Shown: in pieces, positions 17,600-41,691 of the stretch
Layout of the letters: every line of letters starts with the position of its first letter
How positions within the stretch are numbered: position 1 is the first letter of the stretch
Assembly (NCBI GenBank): GCA_035291405.1
Contig: DATDSD010000065.1
Span: 1 to 41,691 of the forward strand
Reading direction: 5' to 3'
Length of the DNA stretch: 41,691 nt
Source: Patescibacteria group bacterium
GTDB taxonomy: Bacteria; Patescibacteriota; Microgenomatia; UBA8517
The notes under the pieces: model-generated
What the model saw: the letters and a program-made list of their open reading frames with translations, nothing else
What the model was told of the DNA's origin: nothing
Database searches by the model: none
Made by a program: the position numbers and the translations under genes

Positions 17600-19810
17600 A
17601 TGGACAAAGTATATAATCACAAAGACCACGAAGATGAAATTTACAAACTTTGGGAAAAGTCGGGTTCATTTAAAGCCTCCAATGATGGTGAGCCTTACAC
17701 AATTCTCATGCCTCCTCCAAATGCGAACGCTTCTCTTCATGCTGGACATGCGATGTATACAGTTGATGATATTTTAATAAGAAGAAAAAGAATGCAGGGC
17801 TATTCAGCTCTTTGGATTCCAGGAATGGATCATGCTGGTTTTGAAACCCAATATGTATATGAAAAAGAACTTGCTAAAGAGGGAAAATCTCGCATGGACT
17901 TTGATAGAGAAACACTTTACAAAAATATTTTTGATTTTGTTAAAAATAATTCTGGATTAATATTTTCTCAATTTAAACGTTTAGGTTTTTCGGCTGATTG
18001 GGATAGAAGTGTCTTTACTTTAGATGAAAATGTAACAAATCAAGTTTTTGAAACATTTAAGAAAATGGAGTCAGAGGGACTTGTTTATAGAGATAACTAT
18101 ATTGTTAATTATTGCACTCATTGTGGAACTTCTTTAGCTGAACTTGAGGTAAAGCATGTCGAAAGAATTGATTCTCTTTATTACATTAAATATCCATTAG
18201 TTAAAAGGGGTGGTTTTGTAGTAGTTGCAACAACAAGACCAGAACCAATTTTTGTAGATACTCATTTGGCTGTAAATCCTAAAAACAAGAAGAATAAACA
18301 CCTAATAGGAAATAGGGTTTTAAACCCCTTAACGGATGTTGAAATGGAAATAATTGGAGATGAGTTTGTTGATCCAGAATTTGGAACAGGAATTGTCAAA
18401 CTTACTCCAGCTCATGATGCTAATGATTATGCGGTTGCAAGAAAACACAATTTACCAATTGTTTCAGCTATAGATTGGTTTGGAAGAATTAAGGAAAATG
18501 GTGGTAAGTATGTAGGGATGAAAGTTAAGGCCGCACGAGAGGAAGTATTAAAAGATTTAGAAGAGAAGGACTTAGTTGACCATATTGATAAGAATTATAA
18601 CCACAGCGTCCTTACTTGTTATAAATGCGGCCATGATCTTGAACCAATGACCACTCCTAATTGGTTTATTAAAGTAGAGGAACTAAAGAAAAAAGTAATT
18701 GAGGTTATAGAAAATGACAAGATAAAGTTCTATCCTAAAAAGTTCAAAAAACACATGCTTTTGTGGCTTGATATCATGCACGACTGGCCAATTTCTCGTC
18801 AAATAGTCTGGGGAATTAGAATTCCGGTTTGGTACGAAGTTAATGATAATTCCAACCTACAGGTTTCGTTTATTGACAAAGAAGGTAATAAAAAATTTGG
18901 AAACATTTCCGATTTTGATTTTGATGAAGTAGAAAAAGGGCTTCAATCAGTAATTGCTGGTGCTGATTCTAAATATCTTGTAAGCAACACTAAACCCAAC
19001 GGAAAGTATTTACCAGAAACAGATACTTTCGACACATGGTTTTCTTCAGGCCAGTGGCCTGTTGTTACATTAAAAGATAATGAATTTAAATCGAGATTTC
19101 CAACTGACTTAATGGCAACACTTTCTGATATTTTGAAGTTTTGGGTATCAAGAATGATTCTCTTTTCAATTTACTTAAAAGATGAAATTCCATTTAAAGA
19201 AATTTATCTCTGGAGCATGGTCGCAGATTCAAAGGGGGTTAAGATGAGTAAGAGTAAAGGAAATGTAATAAATCCCATTGATTTGATTGATAAGTACGGC
19301 GCTGACGCACTTAGAATGTCTCTTCTTTATGGAACACCCGCTGGAAGCAAAGTAATTCTCTCAGACGACAAAGTAAGGTCAATGCGAAATTTTACCAACA
19401 AAATTTGGAATTTAGGTAGATATGTACAATTTTCATTTGAGGGTTTAAGTGAAACGTCTATTAATAGACCTGACAAATTGAACGGAGCTAATGAAAAATT
19501 ACTTTTAGAATTAAGTAATCTTATTAAAAAAGTAGATACCTCATTTGATAAATATAATTTAAACACGGCTCTCGAAGCAGTTTACGAATTTAGCTGGCAT
19601 GTGTTTGCTGACGTGTATATTGAAAAAACAAAAGAACAAATTAAGTCTAAGGATCTTTCTACCCTTTGGACCTTAAGATACACATACTTAACAATATTAA
19701 AATTACTACATCCTTTTGCTCCATTTATTACAGAGGCGGTATGGGAACAACTTAATAATTTAAGAGATCATAAGAATATAAATTTAATAACTTCTTCGTG
19801 GCCAAAATAA
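17600..19810 (+). CDS. valS: Valyl-tRNA synthetase (short form, 736 aa)
   Basis: PPPNANASLHAGHAM (HIGH-type motif), TRPEPIFVDT, WFSSGQWP and VKMSKSKGNV (KMSKS). The ORF track starts at 17498, but the ATG at 17600 (MDKVYNHKDHEDEIYKLWEKSG) fits class-I aaRS N-termini. Confidence 0.93.
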   Translation: MDKVYNHKDHEDEIYKLWEKSGSFKASNDGEPYTILMPPPNANASLHAGHAMYTVDDILIRRKRMQGYSALWIPGMDHAGFETQYVYEKELAKEGKSRMDFDRETLYKNIFDFVKNNSGLIFSQFKRLGFSADWDRSVFTLDENVTNQVFETFKKMESEGLVYRDNYIVNYCTHCGTSLAELEVKHVERIDSLYYIKYPLVKRGGFVVVATTRPEPIFVDTHLAVNPKNKKNKHLIGNRVLNPLTDVEMEIIGDEFVDPEFGTGIVKLTPAHDANDYAVARKHNLPIVSAIDWFGRIKENGGKYVGMKVKAAREEVLKDLEEKDLVDHIDKNYNHSVLTCYKCGHDLEPMTTPNWFIKVEELKKKVIEVIENDKIKFYPKKFKKHMLLWLDIMHDWPISRQIVWGIRIPVWYEVNDNSNLQVSFIDKEGNKKFGNISDFDFDEVEKGLQSVIAGADSKYLVSNTKPNGKYLPETDTFDTWFSSGQWPVVTLKDNEFKSRFPTDLMATLSDILKFWVSRMILFSIYLKDEIPFKEIYLWSMVADSKGVKMSKSKGNVINPIDLIDKYGADALRMSLLYGTPAGSKVILSDDKVRSMRNFTNKIWNLGRYVQFSFEGLSETSINRPDKLNGANEKLLLELSNLIKKVDTSFDKYNLNTALEAVYEFSWHVFADVYIEKTKEQIKSKDLSTLWTLRYTYLTILKLLHPFAPFITEAVWEQLNNLRDHKNINLITSSWPK

Positions 19811-20816: not shown

Positions 20817-23360
20817 TTATGGCTTAACAAATAGTTTTAAATTAAAATCTTTAGCCAAGTCTGTATTATAGAGCGAAGGACCATCTCCCGTCAAGGCTAG
20901 GTCTTGATAAGATACTTTAACACTTAATGGATCCGCTTCTGCCCCTGATTGTTTTCGAATATTTATTCTGTATTCTCCTCCTTCGAAAAGTTTATCTGTG
21001 GGAGAATTCCAAACAATTTGAATTTTATTAATTACTCCGGGGGAAACTTCAAAATAAAAACCCAGATCTTTTCTACTTTCAAAATCTACAATGTCATAGT
21101 CTAAATTTGTATAAGATCCATCTGTTTGATAGGCTCTGACACCTTTAATGGTTACTCCTTGAGGTAAAATCAAACGGGCATAATTTTTATATATTCCTGA
21201 GGCCCCCAAAGATTGACCTGCAATATTTTGGTAATTAATAAAAAGTTCATGGTGTATTGAATTTTTAGAAAGGTTTAAACTTAATTCTTGGCTCCTTTTA
21301 ATAAACAAGTTGGACTTGTTAACACCTAAGTTTGCATCAATTAAAGCATAACTATCCTCAAAACATCTTAAATTGCAATCTGTTTGCATTTTAATTTGTC
21401 CTGAATAATTTAGCCCCGTAATCGCCTCTTGTGAATTTAAATCATCAAGATAAATTTGTATGTGTCTTTCTTCTAAATTTTTGTAAATCTCCTTAAAAAA
21501 AGCTGTATATTTCCCTTTAGGTAAATTTTTCAACTCTTGTAACAAATTCCTCGAAAGTGAAGTCAAAAAACTTGCTTTTTTGATTGAACCAGCAAAAAAC
21601 TCATTCTCTACTTCGCTTTGAGTTGTATCATATAAATTATCTGAGGTTATTGTTTTATTAAAATCTACTAAATTAATAGGGCCGGTAATCTTAAGTAAAC
21701 TTTTAATTAAGTAAAGATCAATTGAAATAACCCCATCAACTTTTTGATCAATTTCTTTATCTATAAACCACTTTGCTTTTTCTGCAGAAATTTTAAAATC
21801 AGGATCCCAGTTGGAATCTCTAAAATACCAATTTGCTTCGCCCAAATATTTTCTAATAGGTTCAGGTGGATCAATATGTCCCTTTAATTGGCCATCAGCA
21901 GAATAAACGTCATTAACCACCATTTCTGTCATTCTACCTTTATCTAAAGTAATTAATGCAAAAGAGCCAATAAAGCCCCCCGTTGGACGAAGCTCCATGT
22001 TATTTTGAAAAAGTATTAAATATTTTTTTGATTTTTCCCAACCCAAAAGCTCTGAGGACCTTGACACAATCTTTTTGAGATAATAGATTTTTTGCTTAAT
22101 ATCGCTTATATTTACATTTTGGGAGACTAGAAATCCATTTATTTCTTTTCCTGCAACTCCTTGTTGTTCCTCAATATCACTTTGTAAAAAATTAATATCT
22201 GTATAAACTTTATCTAAATTGGCTGAAATTTTATCTGTATAGTCTTCTAAAACATAGATCTCACTACCTAAAATATTGTTTACTAAACCATTGGCGCTTG
22301 TAACTATTTCAATTGTATTTTTTACAATATTATTTACTTTCAAAATTAAATTTGATGATTCTATATAGAAGGTATTTCCAAAATTTATATTAACCACGCT
22401 TTTGGAAAGAAAACTAGAAAAATCTAAAATATCATTCGAAACCTCGGAGTTTTTAAATATAAATTTGGTTGATAAAAACAATGATCCAACTGAGGCTAGC
22501 AATAAAATTAAGGGTAATAGATAAATAGTTACTATAGCAACTAGAAAAAAAGTGATTCTTCTGGTTAATTTTTTCAAATTCCTTTTTTGAGGCTTTAAAT
22601 CAGTTGACTTGGTGTTGTAACTCTGCACAGGCCTTAATATTTCATTATTAATTTCATTAATCTGAGAAATATTCCACTCCTTCTTGATATCTTGTATGGA
22701 AGATTTTAGTGATGGGTTTACTTCTCTTGTAACGTCGGGGGTAATTTCTGAAAAACTATTTACTTCTTTCTTAACGTCCACGTTTTCATTTTTTAATTTT
22801 AAATACTTAGAAACAAAAACCCTTGGTTTATCATAAAAACCATGAATTAAGAGTTTTTTTCCTGAGACACCAAATGAAAAATTATCTTTTACAATCTCAC
22901 TTGCAAATTTGGATAGTGAAATGACATTAAAATTGTTATCACCAACAACAACTCTTTCACTCATTAAAGAATTTTTTATTAGTTTGTGTGAAAAGTAGTT
23001 TTCATTAAAATCAACTCCGCGTCCAAGAATCTCTGGAGCTAGAATGATCCCTAAGTTATTATTAACTTCCAAGAGATCATTTAATAATTTATTAACTTTT
23101 TCCAGATCCTCTGTTTTAACCTTATACGGAGATAATACTAAAATTTTACATTCAATGTTTTTAAGAATTTTTATTATCTCACTGCTTATTGGTAAATCGA
23201 TAAGATTAAGAATTAAATAACTAAGTTTAGAGTAATCTACTTTCAAAAAATCGTCAAAAACCAAAACATCTACATATTTATCTGAAAATTTCTCTTTTAA
23301 TTTATCTGATAAATAATTACTCTTCGAGTATAAACCAAGTATTGAATCGTAATCTTCCAT
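20817..23360 (-). CDS. Large membrane-anchored extracytoplasmic protein, unknown function (possibly DUF4012-like)
   Basis: 847-aa uninterrupted ORF. An N-terminal ~260-aa cytoplasmic part precedes a single TM (ITFFLVAIVTIYLLPLILLLASVGSLFL) and a ~560-aa external domain. The family assignment is from memory of similar architectures and is not verified. Confidence 0.7.
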   Translation of the reverse strand: MEDYDSILGLYSKSNYLSDKLKEKFSDKYVDVLVFDDFLKVDYSKLSYLILNLIDLPISSEIIKILKNIECKILVLSPYKVKTEDLEKVNKLLNDLLEVNNNLGIILAPEILGRGVDFNENYFSHKLIKNSLMSERVVVGDNNFNVISLSKFASEIVKDNFSFGVSGKKLLIHGFYDKPRVFVSKYLKLKNENVDVKKEVNSFSEITPDVTREVNPSLKSSIQDIKKEWNISQINEINNEILRPVQSYNTKSTDLKPQKRNLKKLTRRITFFLVAIVTIYLLPLILLLASVGSLFLSTKFIFKNSEVSNDILDFSSFLSKSVVNINFGNTFYIESSNLILKVNNIVKNTIEIVTSANGLVNNILGSEIYVLEDYTDKISANLDKVYTDINFLQSDIEEQQGVAGKEINGFLVSQNVNISDIKQKIYYLKKIVSRSSELLGWEKSKKYLILFQNNMELRPTGGFIGSFALITLDKGRMTEMVVNDVYSADGQLKGHIDPPEPIRKYLGEANWYFRDSNWDPDFKISAEKAKWFIDKEIDQKVDGVISIDLYLIKSLLKITGPINLVDFNKTITSDNLYDTTQSEVENEFFAGSIKKASFLTSLSRNLLQELKNLPKGKYTAFFKEIYKNLEERHIQIYLDDLNSQEAITGLNYSGQIKMQTDCNLRCFEDSYALIDANLGVNKSNLFIKRSQELSLNLSKNSIHHELFINYQNIAGQSLGASGIYKNYARLILPQGVTIKGVRAYQTDGSYTNLDYDIVDFESRKDLGFYFEVSPGVINKIQIVWNSPTDKLFEGGEYRINIRKQSGAEADPLSVKVSYQDLALTGDGPSLYNTDLAKDFNLKLFVKP

Positions 23361-29837: not shown

Positions 29838-30503
29838 TTAAAATTCTTCGTTAGGTTGCATCGTGTAATATTTAATAGGTTCTTCTGCTCCAGCTTTTTT
29901 TAGTTTTTTCAAAGCATCTTCAATAATTGTTTTTATCGTTTGTTCGTCTGTCTGTTCTTGTAAAAATCTAATTCTAAACATTTTTTTATCATAATCATAA
30001 ACGATTCTATATTCTTTTGTTTCAATAGGAAGACTTGTGTACCAAGGGTTATCTTCAACAAATCTCCTTGTTGCATCATTGTAGGCAGTATCCCCTTCTG
30101 CTTGGAGTTTTCCTTCACTTTCTAGCTGCTCAGGTGTAAAAGGGTTTGTTGTAAATTCAAAGGAATAGATCTCTTTCTCGACAAAGTTAATTGAAATTTT
30201 ATATTTAACCCCATATTCAAATTGGTTTTCCGGCGAAATGCGAATTTTATTAGTTTGATAAACAATTTCAGATTTTACTTGAGGTTCTATTTTAACTTTC
30301 AGGTTGTTTCCTTCTTCTAAAGACATTTCTCTGTTTAGTTCAACTAATACTTCCGACTTTTCGTTTACAAAAACAGCATTATTTTTTGGAGTTGTTGATA
30401 TGACACTAAGAGTAGGAACCTCTTCCTTTTTTGGAATTAATAAGATTAAAACAAAAATTATAAAAACAATAAGACCTATAAAAATAAATATTTTTTTCTT
30501 CAT
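29838..30503 (-). CDS. Membrane-anchored extracytoplasmic protein, last gene of the T4SS-like operon
   Basis: 221 aa. An N-terminal TM (IFIFIGLIVFIIFVLILLI) is followed by a beta-rich segment and then an alpha/beta C-terminal domain. Its start overlaps the upstream stop in an ATGA arrangement. Confidence 0.6.
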   Translation of the reverse strand: MKKKIFIFIGLIVFIIFVLILLIPKKEEVPTLSVISTTPKNNAVFVNEKSEVLVELNREMSLEEGNNLKVKIEPQVKSEIVYQTNKIRISPENQFEYGVKYKISINFVEKEIYSFEFTTNPFTPEQLESEGKLQAEGDTAYNDATRRFVEDNPWYTSLPIETKEYRIVYDYDKKMFRIRFLQEQTDEQTIKTIIEDALKKLKKAGAEEPIKYYTMQPNEEF

Positions 30504-32956
30504 GGTAATCCTATTCCAATTACATCAATATATCCAGGTTTTCCTTGTAAACCACCTGAACCTAAGGTCAAATGCTCAACCTTAAGCCCAGCATTTGATT
30601 GAATATATGTTACATCATCCCCATTTACCTGATAAATCATACCAACATGATCAATTCTGTCTTTTTCGTTATCTACGTCAAAAAATATTACAGCACCAGG
30701 AAGGGCGTTTGTGGAATTAACATCCTTTGCATCAAAATATGTGTGATTATTGTAAAAGTCATCTTTCATTGTTGGTGAATATAATGTTGGATTAATACTA
30801 ATTCCGTTTTCTGTATATGCTTTTTGTATAAGCCAAGTACACCAGAAAAGATCTTCTCCTGCTGTTGGGCTGGCGTCGGGATTTGTGGCATACAACTGTT
30901 CATCAAATAACTCAGGATAACTTGGAGGGTAAGTCGTTACATCTGTAGAATAATCTCCTGGAGATCTATTCCAATAACACCAGAAACCTTGATATAAATC
31001 TTCAACAATATGCAAGCCACGGGTTGCAACTGCAGAATTTACAGAATAATTAATTCCTGTAGGTTCTTTTAATGGAGAACATCCTAAACCTGGCCCTGGT
31101 CCTGGACCATCTACAACAGGTTGCGGTGGAACCATATAAGCCCCTGAATTAATAACCAACATTATAAAAGCAACCATTGGAGGAATAACTACAAGAGCAA
31201 TGATAACTGGAGCGGCTATCGTAAAAACAAAGGCTCTACCTAATACCCCAAGAAAACCACCAACTGAAGCACCAATCTTTGCAAGAGAAAAATTTTTTGC
31301 AAGGAGCATTCCACCAAGAAACATTCCCCCACCAACCCAAGGTCCCCAAATCGCAAGCCCCCCAACACCTAAAAGTATTGGTCCATTATCTCTAAGCCAT
31401 TTCTTTATCTTAGGTAAATTAATAATTTTTCCAATTGCCGCCATCACTGCCGTAATTAAAATAGAAACACCAGCCGTGAATACTCCCAAACCAACACCTA
31501 TAGCTGCAGCCCCTTTTGCAAGTAACCCACTAAGGCCAGCCTTTACCCCGACACTAGTTGCAACTTTACCTGCAACCTGTTTTGTTACTCCAGTGGATAT
31601 TGCTACTGAGGGTGTAACAGCAACGGAGGATGTTATCCCGGTGTTGATTCCTGCTAATTTTCCTACACCACTTATAATTGGTGCATATTCTGGAGCAATT
31701 TTTAAGGCAAGCCTTCCAAGTAAATTAGTAGCCTCCCATTTAACAGGAGTTCCAATACCAAATCTAGAAAAGAGTAAACTTTTTGCTTCTGTTGATTGAA
31801 GAATTTTTCCAGCGGCAGACTGTGGTGTAAGTAGAGCAATCCTTTTTTCAATTAGAGTACCTGCCCGTCGGTACAAAACCCCTTTTGTTTGGTCAACTCC
31901 AAATTCTTTTACCAAAGCCAAGCTTTGACTTTGATCATCTATTATTTGTTGGTTACTCTGAACAACTTGATATGGAGAAAAGGTTGAAACATATCCAGGT
32001 TGTGGGGTTTCTGAGATACTCACCTTAACTTTATCAGGACCAACTCCAAAAACAATATTTGCAAAACTTTCACCAAAAGCTAATTTGGTGATATCTTTTG
32101 CAATTTGATCAGGAAAAATTCTAAAAACAGCAACATTATTTGCACTATGCTTTATTAAATCTTGTGCATCTTTTGTGACGGCAGTTTTACTTATAACGTC
32201 GGGAGTATTTGCAATATGTGCAAGAACTGCAGTTTGATAAGAGGTAGGAATGTACTGAGGAGAATCAATCTGGGTTAAATTTTCAACCAATTGTGTAGCA
32301 GTCTGTTTTGTTACAACTTTGATTTCTTCTTCTGTTAGTCCTTGCTTTTTAAGTTCAACAGATGTTCTTTTCTCAATTTCTTGACTTAAATCTTCGACTG
32401 CTTGCTTAGGATCTTGTTTAGAGAATTCTTTGTATGTATCAAAATCTTTTTGTTCGTCTTCTGTTAATTTTGTTTCTTCCTGTGGCTCTATTTTTACATG
32501 CAGTACCTTTTCCTTTTGTTTTTCTAAATCTTTTAAAATCTGATCATTTTTTGTCTTTAATTCTTCAAGTTTTTGTCTTGCTCTATCAACTTCCTGTTTT
32601 GCGTTTTCTCTAGTTTCTTTAATTTGTTCTTCTCTTTTTTCCAATTTCTCTTCCAGCACAGCAGACTCGTCTTTATTGATTGTTGTCTTTTGTTGTGCTT
32701 CGGGTCTTTCTGCCTCTTTAGTTGTTCTTATTCTTTCCTCATACCAGTGTTCTACTAGAATTCCTAAGTACTTATCTGGAATGTCAATGTCTTTTGGAAT
32801 ACCTAAATTAATCAGTTGTTTTTTAATGATTTTAAATTCTTCAGATTCGTATTCTAAGATATTCTTCAACCTATCACTTAAGAACTTCAATTGTTCATCT
32901 GATAATGTTTCTGGTACTGGTAAATCCAATAATTGAGATAAGATATTGTTTTTCAT
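30500..32956 (-). CDS. T4SS-associated cell-wall hydrolase: coiled-coil N-domain, Gly-rich multi-TM region, C-terminal CHAP/NlpC-P60 domain
   Basis: 818 aa with no signal peptide. Residues ~80-200 are a highly charged coiled coil. A Gly/Ala-rich hydrophobic region follows (GVGLGVFTAGVSILITAVMAAIG, GGLAIWGPWVGGGMFLGGMLL, FVFTIAAPVIIALVVIPPMVAFIMLVI), then a GPGPGPG linker. The papain-like hydrolase motifs are DLFWCTWLIQKAY (catalytic Cys) and IDHVGMIY (His). Confidence 0.75.
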   Translation of the reverse strand: MKNNILSQLLDLPVPETLSDEQLKFLSDRLKNILEYESEEFKIIKKQLINLGIPKDIDIPDKYLGILVEHWYEERIRTTKEAERPEAQQKTTINKDESAVLEEKLEKREEQIKETRENAKQEVDRARQKLEELKTKNDQILKDLEKQKEKVLHVKIEPQEETKLTEDEQKDFDTYKEFSKQDPKQAVEDLSQEIEKRTSVELKKQGLTEEEIKVVTKQTATQLVENLTQIDSPQYIPTSYQTAVLAHIANTPDVISKTAVTKDAQDLIKHSANNVAVFRIFPDQIAKDITKLAFGESFANIVFGVGPDKVKVSISETPQPGYVSTFSPYQVVQSNQQIIDDQSQSLALVKEFGVDQTKGVLYRRAGTLIEKRIALLTPQSAAGKILQSTEAKSLLFSRFGIGTPVKWEATNLLGRLALKIAPEYAPIISGVGKLAGINTGITSSVAVTPSVAISTGVTKQVAGKVATSVGVKAGLSGLLAKGAAAIGVGLGVFTAGVSILITAVMAAIGKIINLPKIKKWLRDNGPILLGVGGLAIWGPWVGGGMFLGGMLLAKNFSLAKIGASVGGFLGVLGRAFVFTIAAPVIIALVVIPPMVAFIMLVINSGAYMVPPQPVVDGPGPGPGLGCSPLKEPTGINYSVNSAVATRGLHIVEDLYQGFWCYWNRSPGDYSTDVTTYPPSYPELFDEQLYATNPDASPTAGEDLFWCTWLIQKAYTENGISINPTLYSPTMKDDFYNNHTYFDAKDVNSTNALPGAVIFFDVDNEKDRIDHVGMIYQVNGDDVTYIQSNAGLKVEHLTLGSGGLQGKPGYIDVIGIGLP

Positions 32957-34836
32957 GCTTCTTTATTCCATGCTTTTAAATTAGGCATTGTTGTCGTCGG
33001 ATTATCTTGCGGTTTAGTATTAATTAATTTATGTTCTTCTTCAGAAGCAACAACTCTAATAGGTGCATGGTGAGGACCGGCAAAGAAAATTCCTTCTCCG
33101 ACATTTGCTGCTAAGAGTAATTGTTTTTCTCCTTGAGAAAGATAGAAAAGATCTCCTATTTTATCTATTGCTGCAGGTGATTGTTTCAGTAGAAGCCTTA
33201 AAGCGCTGTTTGTGACAATTGCCTTTCCAATGTCCTGACTTAGGAAGTCCTCGACGTCCTGAGTGATTGTAGTGAGTCCCAGATAGTATTTTCTAGCCCT
33301 CTTGACAACGGACCAAAGAAATTGTGCCGTGTCAGGATATCTCATCATGTGCCACGCCTCGTCTACAATTAATATTCTTCTTTTAATATCTTTTTTAACT
33401 CTGGTCCAGATATAGTCTAAAATCATAAACATCGCAATTGGTCTTAGTGCATCTTGTAAATCTTTAACAGAAAAAACAGTGAAGGGATTATTTAAATTTA
33501 TGTTTGTCTGTTTATCAAAAATTCCCTGGAAGGATCCTCTAACAAATTTTTCAATACGGGCGGCCAAATCCAAAGCCTCTGGAACCTCCATGCCAATTAA
33601 AGTTTTGTATAAATCTTCAATTAAAGGAGGCTCTTTGGTTTGAGTTTCTGGATCATTTGTTATACCCTTGGCTTTATAAGTCATAATTAAAGCACGGTCA
33701 AGCATTGCTTCTTGCGTTGGTGTGATTTGACCCATTATAACTTTCATCAGGGAGTGAAGAGACAGTATTTTTAATCCCAATTGATTTTCTCCCTCTTCTC
33801 TAATTTGAGCAAGATCAAAAGGATTAATTTTTGCTGAAGAATTAAATGAGAAAGCAATATATTCTCCCCCCACAGCTTCACAAAGGGTTTTATACTCAGC
33901 TTCAGGATCTAATATTATTGCTTCTGAACCAATCATTAAGGACCTGACCGCTTCAAGTTTTACAAAATACGATTTTCCGGCACCAGAGGTGGCAAACACA
34001 GTCATGTTTCCATTCTCCAAAGAAAATCTGTCAAATATAATGAAAGATTCATTTTGGGAGTTTATTCCGTACAAAACCCCCCTGTCTGATGACAATTCTG
34101 CTGATGTAAATGGAAAAGTGGTAGCAACAGAAGTTGTATCCATATTCCTAGTGATTGCTAATCTGTCTTGTCCATATGGTGCTGATGAAAGAAAACCTTC
34201 ACGTTGGTCAAGCATTGCATGTTTAGCAACAATTAAAAGTGAACCCAAAAGAGACTCAATTTGACGACTTATATTATTTAATTCATCAATAGAATTTGCA
34301 GGAATAGTAATGTAAAAAGAAAATTCATAATATCTTTCAATCCCCTTTACAAGTTGTTCTTGAAGAGCCCTTGCATCTTCAAGTTTAGCTGTAGTTGCAG
34401 GGTCAACAATTCTTCCCCTTTCAATATCAGTTGAGATTTCAGCCTCCATTTCTGCAATTTTTCGTCTAAGGTCGTCTAACACAGACTTTCCTTGGACGGG
34501 GTAAACATAAAAAGAAATATCTAAAGAACTATTAAAATTAACAATAGGTTCAAGCCATCCAGGAGCAACAAACCTTGGATAGCCTGCAACAAATAAAGTT
34601 TTGTAGTAAACATTGTTTACTTTTATAAAATCAAAATCTACTTCAACATCGTTTGGAGCAATTACATCATGAAGTTGCATTCCTCCACTTTCAATCATTG
34701 ATATCGGGTTTTTAATCTCGGGTTTTACTATAGCTACTGGTTTTTCCATTTTCTTATTCTGTTCTTCGACTTTTATGTTTGTATTGGTTGGAACTACAAC
34801 CGGTTCGCCTGCTTGATTTAAACTGTTATTATTCAT
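32953..34836 (-). CDS. virB4: VirB4/TraC/TrsE-family T4SS ATPase
   Basis: 627 aa. Walker A is FATSGAGKSYFVK and Walker B is RRILIVDEAWHMM (the DEAW typical of VirB4). The downstream block is YYLGLTTITQDVEDF. Its stop overlaps the next ATG (ATGA). Confidence 0.88.
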   Translation of the reverse strand: MNNNSLNQAGEPVVVPTNTNIKVEEQNKKMEKPVAIVKPEIKNPISMIESGGMQLHDVIAPNDVEVDFDFIKVNNVYYKTLFVAGYPRFVAPGWLEPIVNFNSSLDISFYVYPVQGKSVLDDLRRKIAEMEAEISTDIERGRIVDPATTAKLEDARALQEQLVKGIERYYEFSFYITIPANSIDELNNISRQIESLLGSLLIVAKHAMLDQREGFLSSAPYGQDRLAITRNMDTTSVATTFPFTSAELSSDRGVLYGINSQNESFIIFDRFSLENGNMTVFATSGAGKSYFVKLEAVRSLMIGSEAIILDPEAEYKTLCEAVGGEYIAFSFNSSAKINPFDLAQIREEGENQLGLKILSLHSLMKVIMGQITPTQEAMLDRALIMTYKAKGITNDPETQTKEPPLIEDLYKTLIGMEVPEALDLAARIEKFVRGSFQGIFDKQTNINLNNPFTVFSVKDLQDALRPIAMFMILDYIWTRVKKDIKRRILIVDEAWHMMRYPDTAQFLWSVVKRARKYYLGLTTITQDVEDFLSQDIGKAIVTNSALRLLLKQSPAAIDKIGDLFYLSQGEKQLLLAANVGEGIFFAGPHHAPIRVVASEEEHKLINTKPQDNPTTTMPNLKAWNKEA

Positions 34837-34839
34837 AAT

Positions 34840-35649
34840 TTATATATCTTTCTTTACTGCTGGTGGCTCAGGATTATTTATCCAATAATAAAGATCAATT
34901 AAATCGTTAGTTGTTAATTGCTTTAGTTTAAGACCAAGTCTTCCAGCCTGTCTTATAAGATGATCTCTTTTGGGGAAAAGTGTAATCTTTGCCTTTTTAA
35001 GTACATAATCTTTTGGAAATGGTAATGGGCCTTTTTTAAGAACAGATTGGGCTGATTTTGTAACCCCAAGTTCAAGTGGACTAAAAGGAATTGCTATGAA
35101 AAATCTTTTTCCCAAAACTGTTTTTTTCTTAATAGAGTCTGTTATAAAATGCCTGTAATCAGCAGTAATGTTAGCCAACTTAGGATTTGTAATTTTACTT
35201 GAAGATTCATCAAAAAATCTAATATAACCAGATATATCCTTTTTCTGAGTTCTAACAACAATTTGCATTGAAAAAGAAAGAGAATTAATTAGAGCTGCAA
35301 ATGCAGCAACTACTGCCTGTTGTTCTTTTTCAGAAAGTAAACCAAAGTTAAGTGAGGAAGATTCCAAAACAACAGATGCTCCCCCATCTTTGAACAGAAC
35401 AATATCATCAACAATATCAGCGATAGGTAGATGATCCTGTGTTGTTGACCTAAGTGGCATGTCTGGTGTTCCAAAATATGGAATTTTACTGATTAACTCT
35501 TTTAATTTTTGTTTAAAATCAGAACCTTTTTTACTTTCAACTTTTGTTTTTTCAGTTTGTGAATTATTAACAACAGGTTGTGAAGAGGTATTACTCTGTG
35601 TGGTGTAAATTGTTGTTTGGTTTGGTTGTTGTACTTTTACGTTATCCAT
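34840..35649 (-). CDS. Hypothetical T4SS-operon protein resembling a stand-alone VirB4 N-terminal domain (no P-loop)
   Basis: 269 aa. A Ser/Thr/Gln-rich N-terminus is followed by LPIADIVDDIVLFKDGGASVVLESSSLNFGLLSEKEQQAVVAAFAALINSLSFSMQIVVRTQKKDI. This matches the order of conserved blocks I recall at the N-terminus of Gram-positive VirB4/TraC proteins. No Walker motifs are present. Confidence 0.5.
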   Translation of the reverse strand: MDNVKVQQPNQTTIYTTQSNTSSQPVVNNSQTEKTKVESKKGSDFKQKLKELISKIPYFGTPDMPLRSTTQDHLPIADIVDDIVLFKDGGASVVLESSSLNFGLLSEKEQQAVVAAFAALINSLSFSMQIVVRTQKKDISGYIRFFDESSSKITNPKLANITADYRHFITDSIKKKTVLGKRFFIAIPFSPLELGVTKSAQSVLKKGPLPFPKDYVLKKAKITLFPKRDHLIRQAGRLGLKLKQLTTNDLIDLYYWINNPEPPAVKKDI

Positions 35650-35651
35650 AT

Positions 35652-36671
35652 TTATATTTTCTTTCCTTTAATAGCAATTGGAGGAATTATTTCCCCGTTT
35701 GTTTCAAAACTAACAGGATCAAAGGTAAATCCTTCTTTTTCAATTGAAATTTCATATTTACCATTTGCAAGAGGAGTAACAATTATGAAGTGACCTGCTT
35801 TATTACTCTTTAATGCTCTAACAGGTCTTCCATTTAAGTCCTTAATTTCAAGTATGGCCCCTTCGATTATTTTTCTTTCCTGATCCATTACTTGTCCAAC
35901 TACCGTATTAGCAACAATTGCTGGTTGTGGTGGTGCGGCATCAATGGAAAACTCTGCCTCATTGGTAGTAATTTTCTTTTCTTCCAGTTTAGGAACATCT
36001 AAACTACTAACCGTTAAATTGTTAGTAACAGCAGGGCCATGTTCTTCAACAACAAGCCTTGGAGTAGATCTTGTTATAACAGTTGGGATTTGTTGTGGAA
36101 TTGCAACCAAGTTTGGTTTAGTTGGTTGTGGCTTTGGTGCAACTGGTTTAGTGACATCTGTTTGGAGTACAGCAACCTGTACGGGTGGTTGGACAGTAGT
36201 TGAAGGGGGTTGTTGGGTCTTAGCGGATGGAGAGGAAATACTCCATAGTGACCCTAGTTTTGCTAAGAACGATTTTTCAGCCTCTTCTAGTTTTTTAGCG
36301 TTAGGTTCAATAGCTGTTTGACCAGCAGGAACGTTTCCAATTGCTGGCACCTGAGCGTTTTCAGTAAAGAAAACAGCCGGTTTTTCTGTCTTTTTCCATG
36401 TATACAATGTGGGGGAGTAGATTGATCTAAAAAAAGCAATAATCCATTTTTCCAAAGGTCTTTCTTGAAAAGGTAAGAAGGCCATTGCAGCACCCAAAGC
36501 AGCAGACAATACAATTATTGGCCATTTTATTATTGGGTGAAGGGGGGTGGCATAGAAAAGTAGACTGACAACAATACCACCAGCAACTTGAAAAAATTGC
36601 TTTAAAGTCATATCTCCCACTAATTTGAATTGATATGAACTTATCTGTTGTGGTATTGGATGTTGTTCCAT
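35652..36671 (-). CDS. PrgI/VirB3-like two-TM protein fused to a Pro-rich linker and a C-terminal beta-sandwich domain
   Basis: 339 aa. The N-terminus HPIPQQISSYQFKLVGDMTLKQFFQVAGGIVVSLLFYA...IIVLSAALGAAMAFLPFQERPLEKWIIAFFRS fits PrgI-family topology. The linker reads QQPPSTTVQPPVQV..KPVAPKPQPTKP. The C-terminus VVGQVMDQERKIIEGAILEIKDLNGRPV...NKAGHFII..LANGKYEISIEKEGF looks like a carboxypeptidase-regulatory-like fold. Confidence 0.6.
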   Translation of the reverse strand: MEQHPIPQQISSYQFKLVGDMTLKQFFQVAGGIVVSLLFYATPLHPIIKWPIIVLSAALGAAMAFLPFQERPLEKWIIAFFRSIYSPTLYTWKKTEKPAVFFTENAQVPAIGNVPAGQTAIEPNAKKLEEAEKSFLAKLGSLWSISSPSAKTQQPPSTTVQPPVQVAVLQTDVTKPVAPKPQPTKPNLVAIPQQIPTVITRSTPRLVVEEHGPAVTNNLTVSSLDVPKLEEKKITTNEAEFSIDAAPPQPAIVANTVVGQVMDQERKIIEGAILEIKDLNGRPVRALKSNKAGHFIIVTPLANGKYEISIEKEGFTFDPVSFETNGEIIPPIAIKGKKI

Positions 36672-36772
36672 ATGAGCAGTTGCCTATAATAAAGCATAGT
36701 GCGTGAAGGGTTATGTGCAACAAGTGCAGTTTTTCACAAGATTTAATTTCATTTTCAATTAACTTTATATTT

Positions 36773-36781
36773 TGGTATAAT
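36773..36781 (+). promoter_or_regulatory. Extended -10 element (TGGTATAAT) positioned for a leaderless transcript of the 861-aa gene
   Basis: TGGTATAAT at 36773..36781. The ATG at 36789 lies 7 nt downstream. There is no purine-rich Shine-Dalgarno sequence in between (TCTTGTT). Confidence 0.35.
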
Positions 36782-36788
36782 TCTTGTT

Positions 36789-39374
36789 ATGCCAGAACCA
36801 GGTTTTAACGAGGGTGGTCAATCAAAGTCCTCAATTGATATTTTAATGAAGGCGGGTGGCCCATCAAAGCTTGTGGGAATGGAACCCCAAAAAGTATCTT
36901 TCTCTGGATCAATGAAAATGGAGGACAACCAAAACAAAACAATTCTTCCCGATCCAATTCCAGGAACAGTTTACGGTTCTGCTCGAAAGAAATGGGAAGA
37001 ACAGATAGAAGCAGGTAATATTCCACAATCAGTCATTGACCAGGCAAATGTGGTTAATTTGCTTGATGATGAAGAGATGCAGCGTAGGTCTCAAGAAGCA
37101 AATTTTTATGCTGTTCAACGGGAAGAACAGTATGCTCGCAGAGATAGAATTTTAGGCAGATTAACAAATGCAGAATCAGTTGCAGATGTTGTAGCTACTT
37201 TAGATGTTCTTAAAGATTTTATGGACTGGAGCAAAGCCGAAGCGTCTGATCCATATAGTTTTAGATATTATACAAAAACCGCATTAGATGGTGCGAGAGC
37301 TTTTAGTAAAACACATCAGCAATTAGCAGATGAGGGAATAGTTAGGGGACCCCTTAGAAGAGGTGGTACTTACGGAAATGCCATTGGTGTAGATGGCTAT
37401 TTAGTTGAAGGTGCCCAAGTTTTGCAAAATGGTTATGCAATTAGAGTGGAGAAAGATATTGAAGAAAAACCTAATGGTAAAACAAAAGTTAAAGAAAGAT
37501 ATTATTATGGTACAGAAAAAGAAAGAGTAGCCTTAGCCAATGCTCATGAACAGTTAATGAGAGCTCTAATCACTGGTCAAAAAATTCATGAACAGACAGG
37601 AGCTTTCGATATGAACAGAGCCTCTCTAGAAGAAATGGTCAAGTATTTTTATATAAGACAAGTTGGACTTACAAATGAACAAATAACATGGGTATTTACT
37701 GCGGCGGATATTAAAAAAATTACTCCAGAAGCTCCTAATAATCAAGAATCTGGATTAAGAAGAAGCAAGGCAACTAGAGCATTATATTTATTAGGAAAAT
37801 GTGAAACTAAAGAGAAAATGGAAGATCATTTAAATAACACCTTTAATTTTGATAAGTTTCTTGATCAACCAACAATAAAAAGAACGTTGGAAATTATGAA
37901 AACTGTCGGATTTGTAGATGAACAAGCTAAAGGTATGACAGACCAAGTCAAGGCAGCAAGATTTTTAATAGGAAAAGGTCTAACATACGACGAAAAAGAA
38001 AAAAGTTGGAAAGTTAATTGGCTAGATAAAAATCAGAGAGATCCTTCAAAAGCAACCACCGATAAAGAAAAAGACAAAAGAGGAACTGGTGCAATTAAAG
38101 AGGAAAAAGAGGTTAGAGGATTTTTAACAGAGTTTGGAAATCCCTACACAAGGGGTAATAGAGATGCGATGTACTTGTTACTTAACAGAATAGGTTCAAT
38201 TATAGGTGATACTGATAATATTGATGTTAAAATTGCGGACAGATTGTTTTGGACATGGGGAGAAAAAGACGAATTAGGTCTTGAAGTATATTCACCGGAA
38301 AATATTCCAACAGGGGAGCAATTTTTAGAATCTTTTAATAGATTGGCTTCGGAAGATTATGAAAAATGGAGAAAATTAGCAGATGAGCATCTAAGATATT
38401 TTTCTCTTCCAGGTGAACCGATCGGTTCTGATTTGTCAAAAATATTCTACCCTCAGTTTTATAGATTAAAAGATTTACTTAATGATCGTCCTACTGGTTC
38501 ACCTTTAACAGTTGATAAATTTAAAAGATTTACACAAAGTTTAATGACATTAGCCCGAAATGAGGTTTGGTGTGGAAGATATGAAAAAGATGACGAGGGA
38601 AAACCCGCATTTAAGAAAAAAGAAGATGGTAAACCCGAACTTGATGAGAACGGAAGAACCATACCGATAAAGTTAGTAGAGACCCGATCGGTAAGAGAGC
38701 AATTTTTGGGACATAAAGCAACCGATGGTTTGCCAGAAGAACATGCTAAAGAAATGGGTGAAATTGGTTGGGACCAAATTTCAGCCCCCGCAGAAATGGA
38801 AGATGTAAAAATTGGAGAAAGTCATGAACTTTCACCTGAACAAAGACAGGCTCTGGAGAAGTCAATTGGATTAAATAGCGGAGCAGTTGCCGATAATGCC
38901 ATGGGTTATTTTTGGCTTATGAATTTCTTGGCTGGAGACGGAAATCCCGATAAAAGACCATGGGCATTTATTAACGATGAAAGCCCTGACCAAAAAAAGC
39001 TAATAAAAGCTTCTGGTTTTACTGCAAAAAATAAATTTTTAACTATTGTTTGGCATGATTCTGCACTAGTTTATGGGGATTGGAGAAAAAAAAGTATTGA
39101 AGCAGATTTAGCAAGAAAAAAAGTGAAAGTTCTAATAAAAGAACAGGCCAAAGAAGCTTGGGCAATAGGCAGAAAAGCTTGGTATGCTGGAGTAAGAGCT
39201 CTTCCTGATTATCCAACATGGTCTAGTCAAACTTTAGATTATAGAGATATTGAAAGTGGTGCTGGTAAAAGTATTACTATTGTAAATTATATTGAACAAC
39301 TTGCTGTTAGATTTGGATTTTTAGATCCAAAAGAAATTAGAAGATTTCCAAAACAACGGTTAAAAATAATATAA
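36789..39374 (+). CDS. Large hydrophilic orphan protein (861 aa), divergent from the T4SS-like operon
   Basis: 2.6-kb uninterrupted ORF in an AT-rich genome. It has no TM segment, no signal peptide, no P-loop and no motif I recognise. It is rich in K/E/D/W/Y. Confidence 0.8.
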   Translation: MPEPGFNEGGQSKSSIDILMKAGGPSKLVGMEPQKVSFSGSMKMEDNQNKTILPDPIPGTVYGSARKKWEEQIEAGNIPQSVIDQANVVNLLDDEEMQRRSQEANFYAVQREEQYARRDRILGRLTNAESVADVVATLDVLKDFMDWSKAEASDPYSFRYYTKTALDGARAFSKTHQQLADEGIVRGPLRRGGTYGNAIGVDGYLVEGAQVLQNGYAIRVEKDIEEKPNGKTKVKERYYYGTEKERVALANAHEQLMRALITGQKIHEQTGAFDMNRASLEEMVKYFYIRQVGLTNEQITWVFTAADIKKITPEAPNNQESGLRRSKATRALYLLGKCETKEKMEDHLNNTFNFDKFLDQPTIKRTLEIMKTVGFVDEQAKGMTDQVKAARFLIGKGLTYDEKEKSWKVNWLDKNQRDPSKATTDKEKDKRGTGAIKEEKEVRGFLTEFGNPYTRGNRDAMYLLLNRIGSIIGDTDNIDVKIADRLFWTWGEKDELGLEVYSPENIPTGEQFLESFNRLASEDYEKWRKLADEHLRYFSLPGEPIGSDLSKIFYPQFYRLKDLLNDRPTGSPLTVDKFKRFTQSLMTLARNEVWCGRYEKDDEGKPAFKKKEDGKPELDENGRTIPIKLVETRSVREQFLGHKATDGLPEEHAKEMGEIGWDQISAPAEMEDVKIGESHELSPEQRQALEKSIGLNSGAVADNAMGYFWLMNFLAGDGNPDKRPWAFINDESPDQKKLIKASGFTAKNKFLTIVWHDSALVYGDWRKKSIEADLARKKVKVLIKEQAKEAWAIGRKAWYAGVRALPDYPTWSSQTLDYRDIESGAGKSITIVNYIEQLAVRFGFLDPKEIRRFPKQRLKII

Positions 39375-39386
39375 TACAAATTAAAA

Positions 39387-40970
39387 TTATCTAATACCTT
39401 TTATCATGCCTTCGAGTGTTCTACCTACACCTTCTTGAACAGGATTACTCCATCTATTTATCCAAGGACCCAATATGGGAATTCTACCTATAGGTTCTGG
39501 TGTATCGTGGTGTTCCCATTGGGCAGCAGCATAATTACCATATCCCTTTGCAATAGGTCCTATATCAAAACCATATTCATATGGTTTACCAGCTATGATT
39601 GATTGGATAATTTCTACCACTTTAGTTGCTTGGCTAAAAATTACAAAACTTACAACAACCCATAAAATGTTATCACCTAATGCAAAACCTGAAAAGGGTG
39701 GCCTCCAGCTGTTGTCACCAATAACGTCATGTACAGGATCTCCAAAAATAGTCCCCGCTCCCACACCAGACAATGGGCTATCAGATCCCTGTACAAGGAA
39801 AAAGAATGAAAAGAAAAAAATAAGACCAAGTAATGGATAAACCGCCAAAAGTGATATTAATTTTCTAAGCCATGCACCAAAACTAGATTTACCGGTAAAT
39901 GCCCCTACCAAGATTTGTAATGGGCCAATTGCTATAGTTATCATAATCATCGCAAAGTTTTTGAGAATTACGTATATGATTTTAATTGACCACCAGATGA
40001 TTGCTAATATTGAAATTACCGCAAACAAAAAAACCAACACTCCCATGATAACAGAACTCAAACTGCTAAAAATTGCTAGTAAGGCATTATACATAAATGC
40101 AACCCAATACGCATACATTAAACTAAAAGCATCATATGTCGAATTAAGCGTGTCAAACATAAACGAAAAGCTCGAAGAACTTAAGCCATTACTTGTTATT
40201 AGGCCTGCAATTAATGCTATTACTACATACATTAAATCAATTACAAAACCCGCAATTGCATAAGAGAAAGTAATCAAAATTGTTGTAAATATAATGTTTG
40301 GAAGTGCCGATTGAACAGATATAACAACTTGTGGAGAAATCTTCATTCTAAACATTATCATAAAAGAAATAACAATAACCGCCAAAACTATAAGAGCATA
40401 ACTCATATTTCTTGTTGCTTGCCACAATTTTTTTGCAGGATTTGCAGCAGAATTATATCCAAACCCTTGTGCACGGACATCACTAACAGGGTTAAATTTA
40501 CTAATCAATTCTTTTGTATATCCAATACCTGATATTGGACTTCGTCCGAGAGTGGATAAAAATGAATTATTTGTTGAAGCAAGAGTGGGATTGTTAGCAT
40601 CTGCAATAGGATTAAGTATATCTAGGGCTTTTACAAAAATATCCCAACACGCCGTAGTGTTACCACTTGCCAAACAAGTAGTTAATTCCGGATTACCTGG
40701 TATGTAATTCCAAACGTGAGCCCAAAGGGAATATAAAATCCATTGGACTTGAGCTGCTGTGTATCTTTCTCCAAATATCTCACTGGTTGGAGAAACATCC
40801 TCGTCATACACTTTTGAATACCAAGTAAAAGGATTTTGTTCACTATACCATTCATGATTCCACAAATTTTCTATTTCGTCAGCGGTTGCGGCAGAAACAG
40901 TAGTTGGTAAAGCAAAAGAATTTAAAAATAAAGCTAAAGAGAAAATAATTAGTAAAAGTTTTTTGAGCAT
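39387..40970 (-). CDS. Polytopic membrane protein, candidate VirB6/TrbL/PrgH-type channel subunit
   Basis: 527 aa. A signal peptide (LLLIIFSLALFLNSFALPTTVSA|AT) precedes a ~170-aa ectodomain, then about 6-7 TM helices and a ~100-aa C-terminal tail. The assignment rests on architecture and context only. Confidence 0.5.
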   Translation of the reverse strand: MLKKLLLIIFSLALFLNSFALPTTVSAATADEIENLWNHEWYSEQNPFTWYSKVYDEDVSPTSEIFGERYTAAQVQWILYSLWAHVWNYIPGNPELTTCLASGNTTACWDIFVKALDILNPIADANNPTLASTNNSFLSTLGRSPISGIGYTKELISKFNPVSDVRAQGFGYNSAANPAKKLWQATRNMSYALIVLAVIVISFMIMFRMKISPQVVISVQSALPNIIFTTILITFSYAIAGFVIDLMYVVIALIAGLITSNGLSSSSFSFMFDTLNSTYDAFSLMYAYWVAFMYNALLAIFSSLSSVIMGVLVFLFAVISILAIIWWSIKIIYVILKNFAMIMITIAIGPLQILVGAFTGKSSFGAWLRKLISLLAVYPLLGLIFFFSFFFLVQGSDSPLSGVGAGTIFGDPVHDVIGDNSWRPPFSGFALGDNILWVVVSFVIFSQATKVVEIIQSIIAGKPYEYGFDIGPIAKGYGNYAAAQWEHHDTPEPIGRIPILGPWINRWSNPVQEGVGRTLEGMIKGIR

Positions 40971-40989: not shown

Positions 40990-41691
40990 TTATAGTCCAT
41001 GTCCTACATCCCAAACACATCCATTATGACTTTCTTCACCTGGATACCTATTGTTTATTGTCTCACAATCATCACCTGTTGGGCAGTTTGAACTCATTCC
41101 CCCGGTAGAACAACTATTTTTAAAGGTTGCACACATGTAGGTACTGTTGTATTCTGGTCCATATTCCCACCACCTGATTGCAGTTTCATAGTCTCTCGCA
41201 TCCCAGCTACATGTTCCGGCGGTATTTATGCTTTGTCCTGTGTTAAGTGGTATTCCAAAACAAGAATGCCCAGTAAAGGCACTTGCTCCTGTTGCACTTC
41301 TACTTAAAGTCCAAGAAATTCCATAAATTACATCAAGGAGATTACATGGATCTGGTTCGGTTTTGTTTGGATCAAGATTTTGCAAATCATCCTTTATATT
41401 TTGTGCTATTTCATCCCAAACGGTGGTATTAACAAAACCAACAACAGTTGTTTCTGGTCCTGAACAATTAGGAATTGGTTCGCAGGTGGCCCAATTTAAT
41501 ACATTTTCCTCTGTCCAGTCATATCCTTGTCCGGTTGAATTCCCGTGAGCCGAGTTAAAAGCTCCTTCTCCATACATAACACCTAAGATTAAATTTGGAG
41601 GTGTTTTATAAGTTTCAGCTGCAGCCTCTAAGATTTCCTTAAATGTTGGTGGAATACTTCCAACCTTTGAACTAACCCCGCCCAATGCACA
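40990..41691 (-). CDS. Cys-rich secreted protein, partial (5' end beyond the window); possible lysozyme-like/VirB1-like function
   Basis: The frame is open to the window edge (..CA-LGGVSSKVGS). There are 10 Cys in 233 residues (TCEPIPNC, DPCNLL, GHSCFG, GTCSW, MCATFKNSCSTGGMSSNCPTGDDCE, NGCVW). LILGVMYGEGAFN is only vaguely like a lytic-transglycosylase catalytic Glu block. Confidence 0.6.
   Translation of the reverse strand, partial: CALGGVSSKVGSIPPTFKEILEAAAETYKTPPNLILGVMYGEGAFNSAHGNSTGQGYDWTEENVLNWATCEPIPNCSGPETTVVGFVNTTVWDEIAQNIKDDLQNLDPNKTEPDPCNLLDVIYGISWTLSRSATGASAFTGHSCFGIPLNTGQSINTAGTCSWDARDYETAIRWWEYGPEYNSTYMCATFKNSCSTGGMSSNCPTGDDCETINNRYPGEESHNGCVWDVGHGL

Follow-up and report, generated by a model that had tools for sequence, protein, structure and literature searches.

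A hypervariable gene with a conserved N-terminal module at a fixed position in the origin-adjacent type IV secretion-like locus of a Patescibacteria group bacterium

We examined the gene at positions 36789–39374 (plus strand) of a 41,691-nucleotide stretch of DNA from a Patescibacteria group bacterium (Microgenomatia, UBA8517; assembly GCA_035291405.1, contig DATDSD010000065.1), which was analyzed as a whole and is referred to here as the window. The gene, an open reading frame (ORF) running from ATG to stop, encodes a soluble protein of 861 amino acids (aa) with a body of the type that we call A1, and it lies in a locus resembling a type IV secretion system (T4SS). As an earlier reading of the sequence (the original prediction) had described, it is transcribed divergently from the gene for PrgI and convergently with the gene for a VirB6-like protein. 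We refer to this position as the slot and to its occupant as the slot gene. What sets the slot gene apart in an otherwise conserved locus is its hypervariable body, a key property that went unnoticed in the original prediction.

The locus is the chromosomal, oriC-adjacent, relaxase-less T4SS of Patescibacteria that is already in the literature (PMC10633639, PMC12102498). The T4SS sections of these papers describe a system derived from the mating-pair formation class MPF-FATA, located near dnaA, with arrays of VirB2-like pilins and no relaxase, and propose that it serves protein export or another non-conjugative role. There, the machine is reported to be nearly universal in the phylum (PMC12102498) and essential for epibiotic growth in the one bacterium of the candidate phyla radiation that could be tested (PMC10633639). 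The window is a chromosomal origin region, with dnaA and dnaN, yidC and a gene of the KH/R3H (jag-like) kind; among its other genes are those for GroEL and a class I tRNA synthetase, and tsaD. Further, the locus resembles the published descriptions of the system (Wang et al. 2023, PMC10633639; Quinonero-Coronel et al. 2025, PMC12102498; T4SS sections) in its position next to dnaA/dnaN, PrgI/VirB3, a split TrsD/TraC-like protein plus VirB4, a cell-wall hydrolase, a VirB6-like polytopic protein, T4SS_pilin arrays and the lack of a relaxase or type IV coupling protein (T4CP) nearby. Profile scans detected neither a relaxase nor a T4CP in the window.

The conserved arm of the locus begins with the PrgI gene (35652–36671, minus strand), which is separated from the slot gene by a spacer of 117 bp. 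Pfam identified its product as PrgI (VirB3-like, two transmembrane helices) fused to a CarboxypepD_reg Ig-like domain; PrgI has 2,471 homologues, many of those listed carry both domains, and the fusion is widespread. Next lies the conserved energizing core (32953–35649, minus strand; Pfam and NCBIfam), consisting of a TraC-like/TrsD protein of 269 aa and a VirB4 ATPase of 627 aa. VirB4 is split in two ORFs, 3 bp apart; the same split was found in all homologous loci and agrees with the observation on TrsD in the T4SS sections of PMC12102498. The VirB4 and TraC-like proteins were 99% identical to those of the homologous locus L012 and approximately 80% identical in distant genomes. The arm is closed by a pair of genes adjoining dnaN (29838–32956, minus strand; Pfam and hydropathy), which encode an 818-aa membrane protein with a C-terminal CHAP hydrolase domain (a VirB1-like role) and a 221-aa membrane-anchored Big_5 protein.

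On the other side of the slot gene lies the gene for the VirB6-like protein of 527 aa (39387–40970, minus strand), which was so designated by position and topology alone and had no match in Pfam. A crude topology prediction gave a signal peptide, an external domain of approximately 160 aa, approximately seven transmembrane helices and a tail of 72 aa. The two genes converge with 12 bp between their stop codons (39375–39386). There was no terminator-like hairpin between them, suggesting that the two transcripts probably overlap in antisense. In loci L008 (12403–12406) and L003 (5690–5693), the slot and VirB6-like genes overlap by 4 bp. The next gene (40990–41685, minus strand) is represented by its C-terminal part, since it is truncated by the window end; in homologous loci it encodes a secreted protein of 750–890 aa with a signal peptide, followed by approximately eight T4SS_pilin genes and SpoIID. 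Thus, no complete ORF of the locus within the window is larger than the slot gene, originally called the largest gene of the locus, but the truncated neighbor reaches a similar size elsewhere. The slot protein showed no kinship to this ~800-aa "Big" neighbor, which has a signal peptide. VirB4 and the slot protein are the sole products of the locus without a transmembrane segment or signal peptide. In the T4SS_pilin array of L001, a gene (19252–19608) matched the Pfam family 23S_rRNA_IVP, a four-helix bundle.

The slot protein is hydrophilic, with a grand average of hydropathy of -0.71 and a top 19-residue Kyte-Doolittle score of 0.80. A scan of its sequence for a transmembrane segment, signal peptide, Walker A motif, HxH/HUH motif, DEAD motif and HExxH motif found none, which agrees with what had been read from the sequence by eye. 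The protein contains two Cys residues, and His accounts for 1.0% of its residues. The gene had also been described as less AT-rich than the genes to its left. This held weakly, in that its GC content is 35.9% compared with a window mean of 33.6%, but the value lies inside the range of the other genes (27.4–38.3%) and the neighboring T4SS genes are alike (32–38%). Composition is therefore no sign of foreign origin, and the hint in that direction was not upheld.

Searches of Pfam, NCBIfam, PHROGs and PADLOC gave no match to the slot protein, and neither did searches of PDB sequences (phmmer and the A1 profile). No Pfam domain was found in any of 59 family members, and P0019 and P0081, two relatives, likewise matched no PADLOC defence family. 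The best PDB match of any profile, a stretch of 37 positions of FtsH against profile A4 (E = 0.03), was taken as chance. The protein is thus an orphan in the sense that no annotated family includes it, but it has relatives: a word-indexed search of 5.8 billion sequences returned 19 proteins, and an exhaustive hidden Markov model search of 1.84 billion sequences returned 77 cluster representatives. The named relatives belong to Candidatus Woesebacteria/Microgenomates, and the sequence of the slot gene was present in groundwater and soil metagenomes. A scan of GTDB species representatives used two peptide patterns, both from the A1 clade; because of this derivation, it found two loci and does not amount to a census. 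The slot gene is a real gene; its frame is kept down to approximately 14% identity, and the alignment of its relatives supports a structural model with a predicted local distance difference test score (pLDDT) of 89.

We asked what occupies the slot in other genomes. In 14 of 14 readable contexts, we found one soluble gene of 750–930 aa, divergent from prgI and convergent with a gene for a polytopic VirB6-like protein. Eleven contexts were reached from the protein (the window, L001, L003, L004, L007–L010, L012, L015 and L020). These and the further loci came from the family of the target (L001, L003, L004 and L007–L010), from the clade of P0019 (L012–L015) and, for L020 and L021, from a scan for a DNA pattern. 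Since the first contexts were all reached from the slot protein itself, the test was repeated starting from PrgI. Four contigs were taken from PrgI homologues, one of which ran off the contig; the three informative ones, L016, L017 (complete genome CP011214.1) and L018 (CP129472.1), all had a hydrophilic slot gene of 820–836 aa. Thus, neither of the refuting outcomes named in the original prediction was observed: no housekeeping family matched, and every homologue context examined was the T4SS slot. This supports the view of the gene as a dedicated part of a secretion locus. We concluded that the slot gene is a fixed-position, single, cytoplasmically synthesized non-ATPase component of the Microgenomates T4SS-like locus.

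The spacer between prgI and the slot gene takes insertions. L016 (5052–6853) and L018 (5228–6808) carry an AAA_14/DUF4143 ATPase gene together with a CTP_transf_like gene there, and a glutamate dehydrogenase gene lies between prgI and the slot gene of L010 (8520–9788). In the cultured Southlakia, prgI is followed by SEML1_0011, a same-strand gene for a 998-aa membrane protein, and there is no divergent gene for a soluble protein of ~800 aa; the locus covered there by transposon sequencing is accordingly one without a slot gene. Given this different gene after prgI, the slot family appears, from the sequences compared, to be restricted to Microgenomatia.

When the window was compared with L012, nucleotide identity was 94.6% over 33744–37033, undetectable over 37034–39580 and approximately 84% from 39581. 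In a sliding window, identity was 95–100% up to approximately 36880, decayed over codons 31–90 (60% by 37060) and then fell to the random level. The right flank was patchy (62–92% in 120-nucleotide windows) through the VirB6-like gene, of which the last ~64 codons lie inside the swapped segment, and returned to 99% past 41155. The encoded proteins followed the same pattern: VirB4 and the TraC-like protein were 99% identical, PrgI 97% and the product of the next gene 95%, compared with 27% for the slot protein, including the shared N-terminus. The VirB6-like proteins were 80% identical over 90% of their length (83% in the best local and 77% in the global alignment). Thus, the swap between the window and L012 is bounded on one side within the N-terminal module of the slot gene and on the other within the tail of the VirB6-like gene. 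The slot protein of L012, P0019 (922 aa), was found in three independent assemblies (L012–L014), in a background nearly that of the window.

A second, independent pair gave the same result. Between L001, which carries an A1-type slot gene, and L015, which carries an A3-type one, VirB4 was 96% identical, the TraC-like protein 95%, PrgI 83% and DnaN 79%, and the slot protein was 23% identical, which is background level. The VirB6-like gene was the second most variable of the locus in both pairs (77% and 53%, compared with 83–99% for VirB4, TraC-like and PrgI). An assembly chimera was rejected as the source of the swap, because the same junctions recur in the three assemblies L012–L014 and, in the second case, the contigs are 457 kb (L015) and 499 kb (L001) long. 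Further, community contigs at least 80% alike covered virB4 to a depth of 50–250 and the slot gene, with most of the VirB6-like gene, to a depth of approximately 0–6.

The bodies of the window protein and P0019 are nevertheless related. The narrow profile A1 was silent on P0019, but the broad profile A2 matched it in three collinear blocks, and hhalign aligned A2 with the alignment of the P0019 clade, A3, with a probability of 98.9% (E = 1.4e-17; 474 columns, ~14% identity). This excluded, for this pair, the idea that P0019 is unrelated cargo on a common N-terminus. The homologous bodies fall into three or more deep types (A1, the type of L008, and A3), which are approximately 14–20% identical, with homology resting on profile-profile comparison only. 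The bodies of the three slot proteins reached from PrgI were detected neither by four profiles nor by hhalign; we assigned those of L016 and L018, which are 50% identical to each other, to class D, and that of L017 to class E, to which the L020 protein is distantly related (24% over 400 aa). Within types, identity was 42% between the window and L001 and 41% between L012 and L015, similar to that of DnaN or PrgI. Divergence within types therefore follows the genomes, suggesting that the types are old and coexist in at least two lineages. The alleles were probably exchanged by homologous recombination in the conserved flanks and are likely maintained by balancing or frequency-dependent selection. 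They provide a clear instance of deep allelic polymorphism in uncultured ultra-small bacteria.

The left boundary of the swap falls inside an N-terminal module (codons 1 to ~90; 36789–37060, plus strand), which was delimited by pLDDT and by alignment across classes. In the window protein it comprises MPEPG, SSIDILMKAGG (with a predicted helix at residues 15–22) and PIPGTVYGSARKKWEEQ. The module is predicted to be disordered over the first ~60–90 residues, with pLDDT below 50 at residues 1–14 and 23–58 on either side of the short helix. Residues 1 to 60–75 are alignable between the classes (A1, A2far, A3, D and E). The common motifs are MPDGxxTPE, SSI[DE]x[FM][RK]x[LA]G (which corresponds to the helix in the model) and LPG, followed by PDEGHx[ML]RIG, PDIR[ML]Q or PIPGTxYGxxxxKW[EQ][ED]Q. 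Near-identical N-termini were found on different bodies in three independent cases: the target and P0019, which share 60% identity over 112 aa and differ hardly at all in the first 38 residues; P0007 and the L020 protein (68% over 59 aa); and P0002 with the proteins of L017 and L018. When the decapeptide MPDGMTTPEN was back-translated and a metagenome collection was scanned for exact matches, two loci were found (L020 and L021), and both hits were slot genes. The module is not on every family member, and shorter N-termini occur. At the other end of the protein lies a basic C-terminal tail, RFGFLDPKEIRRFPKQRLKII (39312–39371, plus strand), with a net charge of +4 over the last 20 residues, while the whole protein is net-acidic. 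Among 74 family members, the C-terminal 25 aa averaged +1.8 compared with -0.45 for all windows (mean percentile 0.76), a bias that is significant before any correction for relatedness. The C-terminus is basic in most of the body classes.

AlphaFold2 predicts that the variable part of the protein, residues ~92–841 (37061–39311, plus strand), folds into a compact body that consists mainly of helices and includes three beta-hairpin modules. With an alignment of 18 sequences the model reached a pLDDT of 74.9; with 74 sequences, including deep lineages, it reached a pLDDT of 89.0 and a predicted template modelling score (pTM) of 0.84, with 677 residues at 90 or above. Foldseek found no match in the PDB for either model (best E = 0.36 for the pLDDT-75 model and 0.86 for the pLDDT-89 model; template modelling scores of 0.12 or below) and none in BFVD for the first model (best E = 0.2). 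Matches to alpha-solenoids and AcrB within these searches were not meaningful (E = 0.2–0.86, template modelling scores of 0.12 or below). The structural check proposed in the original prediction thus yielded a confident model, whose predicted fold has no counterpart in the PDB. The slot protein therefore adds a large, confidently predicted fold for which no solved counterpart exists.

Across the A-type lineages, the alignment revealed a polar core consisting of R246, R330, E339, W411, R417, E439, R443-G-xx-T-xx-G-N451, D548-xx-K551, R567, R633-S-xx-E637, E651, W661 and K749. At an overall identity of approximately 15%, R443 was conserved in 100%, E439 in 97% and R417 in 93% of sequences, and D548, K551, R633 and E637 in 80–86%. 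No His or Cys was conserved in the A-type superfamily alignment, and no Tyr was conserved at the level of the polar core. The core motifs of the A types were absent from the bodies of classes D and E.

Taken together, we tentatively favor, at somewhat less than an even chance, the reading that the slot protein is a cognate translocated or host-facing substrate of the T4SS under balancing selection. The protein would be synthesized in the cytoplasm from its own leaderless-type transcript, and its conserved N-terminal motifs would dock it on a conserved part of the machine (VirB4, TraC-like or PrgI). The machine would then pass it through the VirB6-like channel, delivering it either onto the cell surface or into a host bacterium, where the variable body may serve as an effector or as a determinant of host specificity. 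We infer that a model in which the machine exports its own substrate is the most economical, because of the allele classes and because only VirB4 and the slot protein lack a transmembrane segment and a signal peptide. Balancing selection is typical of molecules that meet a variable outside partner, such as a competitor, a phage, or a surface or target of the host. Among the options put forward originally, that of a substrate or effector is the one favored by the hyper-divergent alleles in near-identical backgrounds, the N-terminal module and the basic C-terminus. The slot protein is a concrete candidate for the cargo of the T4SS-like machine. We regard as doubtful the broader proposal that it represents a previously unrecognized class of new-fold substrates of ~800 aa, with a disordered N-terminal signal of several motifs that needs no coupling protein and with ancient balanced alleles that are exchanged by flank recombination and set which host can be exploited.

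Several observations weigh against the protein being a substrate. The T4SS signals known so far lie at the C-terminus or internally, and it is a T4CP that reads them. Since the locus has no T4CP and the known signals need one, an N-terminal T4SS signal would, to our knowledge, be unprecedented. That alleles resemble one another at the N-terminus follows in part from the recombination boundary, which falls in the module. Because the family members share ancestry, the p-value of the C-terminal charge bias is inflated, and the bias is also not universal (L020 is one exception). Evolution within types is no faster than that of DnaN or PrgI and thus gives no sign of ongoing rapid diversification. 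Further, the single copy, constant size, compact rigid fold (pTM 0.84) and polar core are also compatible with an enzyme or with a permanent subunit of the machine. No immunity-like gene lies alongside the slot gene, the next gene being the convergent VirB6-like one, 12 bp away. Three metatranscriptomes of the same study contained 0% of the slot-gene words, a result that is uninformative either way.

Helicobacter pylori exports CagA through its cag T4SS; this protein is a dedicated substrate whose translocation has been shown experimentally. It may be the nearest analogy for the slot protein as a locus-encoded, polymorphic substrate: both are large hydrophilic proteins lacking a Sec signal, both are products of a T4SS locus, and both are markedly polymorphic among strains; the fold of CagA was novel when solved. 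However, the two share no similarity of sequence or fold, and CagA varies mostly in repeat motifs, not by exchange of its entire body. The combination of a conserved module with bodies that recombine between close strains also recalls polymorphic toxins and effectors, such as the CdiA-CT of contact-dependent inhibition (CDI), Rhs, LXG proteins of the type VII secretion system (T7SS) and the Xanthomonas T4SS effectors (X-Tfe) with XVIPCD. In contrast to the modules of these systems, which are folded domains and, in the X-Tfes, C-terminal, the module of the slot protein is short, N-terminal and disordered. Its variable part is ~750 aa and constant in size, whereas that of polymorphic toxins is a small toxin tip, and the hallmarks of such toxins, a recognizable toxin domain and an adjacent immunity gene, are absent. 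Phage receptor-binding proteins and tail fibers similarly combine conserved N-terminal attachment with an exchangeable distal part, with boundaries just past the N-terminus. Unlike them, the slot protein matched no phage protein (PHROGs, BFVD), and its model shows a compact globule, not a fiber.

The alternative that survives best, although we consider it rather unlikely, is that the slot protein stays bound to the machine as a cytoplasmic adaptor or gate under the VirB6-like channel, tethered by its N-terminus to VirB4 or the TraC-like protein, and that it selects or gates substrates as a stand-in, without ATPase activity, for the coupling protein; its body would then vary because the cargo or the VirB6-like partner varies. 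The absence of a T4CP from the locus, the lack of an export signal of known type, the soluble, compact and rigid fold, and the constant size of a protein present in one copy and in strict synteny at every locus are all consistent with such an adaptor, and the conserved polar core points to a site of binding or catalysis that the proteins have in common. This last point is restricted by classes D and E, in which the A-type core motifs are missing. The neighboring VirB6-like gene is the second most variable, and the swapped segment takes in its tail, which is probably cytoplasmic. However, the VirB6-like body was still 83% identical (local; 77% global) between the window and L012, while the slot gene had changed type. 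Across loci, the VirB6-like tails shared only the membrane-proximal motif GKPFAYG.AIGEA and did not follow the slot-gene type; with this motif alone in common, the test is a weak one. Deep allele classes in near-identical backgrounds are hard to explain where VirB4, the TraC-like protein and PrgI, the other possible partners, are 97–99% conserved, and internal scaffolds do not typically vary to this depth.

The hydrophilic domains of extended VirB6 proteins and of F-type TraG set the specificity of mating-pair stabilization and entry exclusion. By description only, the slot protein can be likened to them, as a large, variable, hydrophilic moiety beside a VirB6-like channel protein; here it is a stand-alone protein next to a VirB6-like protein of 527 aa. 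Unlike the extended VirB6 and TraG domains, it is a separate polypeptide encoded on the opposite strand and has no transmembrane anchor. Extended VirB6 is mentioned in PMC12857230.

It is improbable that the slot protein is instead a new-fold enzyme serving the locus, for example on envelope, nucleotide or polymer substrates from or to the host, with a surface that drifts freely. An Arg/Asp/Glu/Lys core that is invariant or nearly so at approximately 15% overall identity, within a compact globular architecture, is what an enzyme might show. No catalytic family or fold was matched, however, and proteins of classes D and E occupy the same slot without the core motifs. Further, an enzymatic activity alone explains neither the allele classes nor the conserved disordered N-terminal module.

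Very improbable is a hotspot passenger unrelated to the T4SS, such as a single-gene defence or selfish element between two operons. The region is hypervariable and the intergenic site tolerates insertions, as in L016, L018 and L010, but the inserted genes lie beside the slot gene and do not take its place. The slot always holds exactly one gene of 750–930 aa in the same orientation and with the same N-terminal module, the decapeptide scan located this module in the slot only, and PADLOC was unmatched.

The original suggestion of a DNA-processing factor that substitutes for the relaxase or coupling protein is scarcely credible, being favored by position only (a large soluble protein in a locus without either) and opposed by the lack of a P-loop, of HUH or any other His cluster and of Tyr, His or Cys conserved at polar-core level across the superfamily, by unmatched MOB and T4CP profiles, by the T4SS sections of PMC12102498 and PMC10633639, which hold these systems to be non-conjugative, and by body classes that look unrelated, which would not be expected of an essential DNA enzyme or other core enzymatic replacement. 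Compared with the coupling proteins VirD4/TcpA, the slot protein lacks the [AG]x4GK[ST] motif and an N-terminal membrane anchor (maximum hydropathy 0.80). Compared with VirB5-like pilus-tip proteins, it lacks a Sec signal peptide and has 861 aa rather than ~220 helical aa.

Neither the T4SS text and gene tables of PMC10633639 nor the T4SS sections of PMC12102498 include the slot protein. As far as these parts of the literature extend, it is an undescribed, fold-novel and hypervariable component with a conserved N-terminal tag, inside a known system.

Upstream of the slot gene lies a promoter-like site (36752–36781, plus strand) with an extended -10 element, TGgTATAAT, that ends 7 nucleotides before the ATG, an arrangement of the leaderless type; no Shine-Dalgarno sequence was found upstream of the gene. 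A similar -10 element lies 6–8 nucleotides upstream of the slot gene in L001, L007, L010, L012 and L015. Across the window, a TAnAAT hexamer ended 5–9 nucleotides before the start of 6 of 34 ORFs, and Shine-Dalgarno-like sequences were rare, which suggests that the first genes of transcription units in this organism are often leaderless. The leaderless promoter is thus real but was rejected as a special feature; since the layout is common in the genome, it shows independent transcription of the slot gene and nothing more. The annotated starts of P0018 (L003, 3045), P0004 (L004, 221) and P0081 (L008, 10001) are probably too far upstream, because the N-terminal motif or the -10 element points to an internal ATG.

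Elsewhere in the window, the sole Rfam match at the gathering threshold was one tRNA gene (5175–5245, plus strand). Left of the origin region, a gene for an 847-aa DUF4012 protein (20817–23360, minus strand) adjoins a Wzy_C/O-antigen ligase-like gene; it is another large uncharacterized envelope-associated gene.

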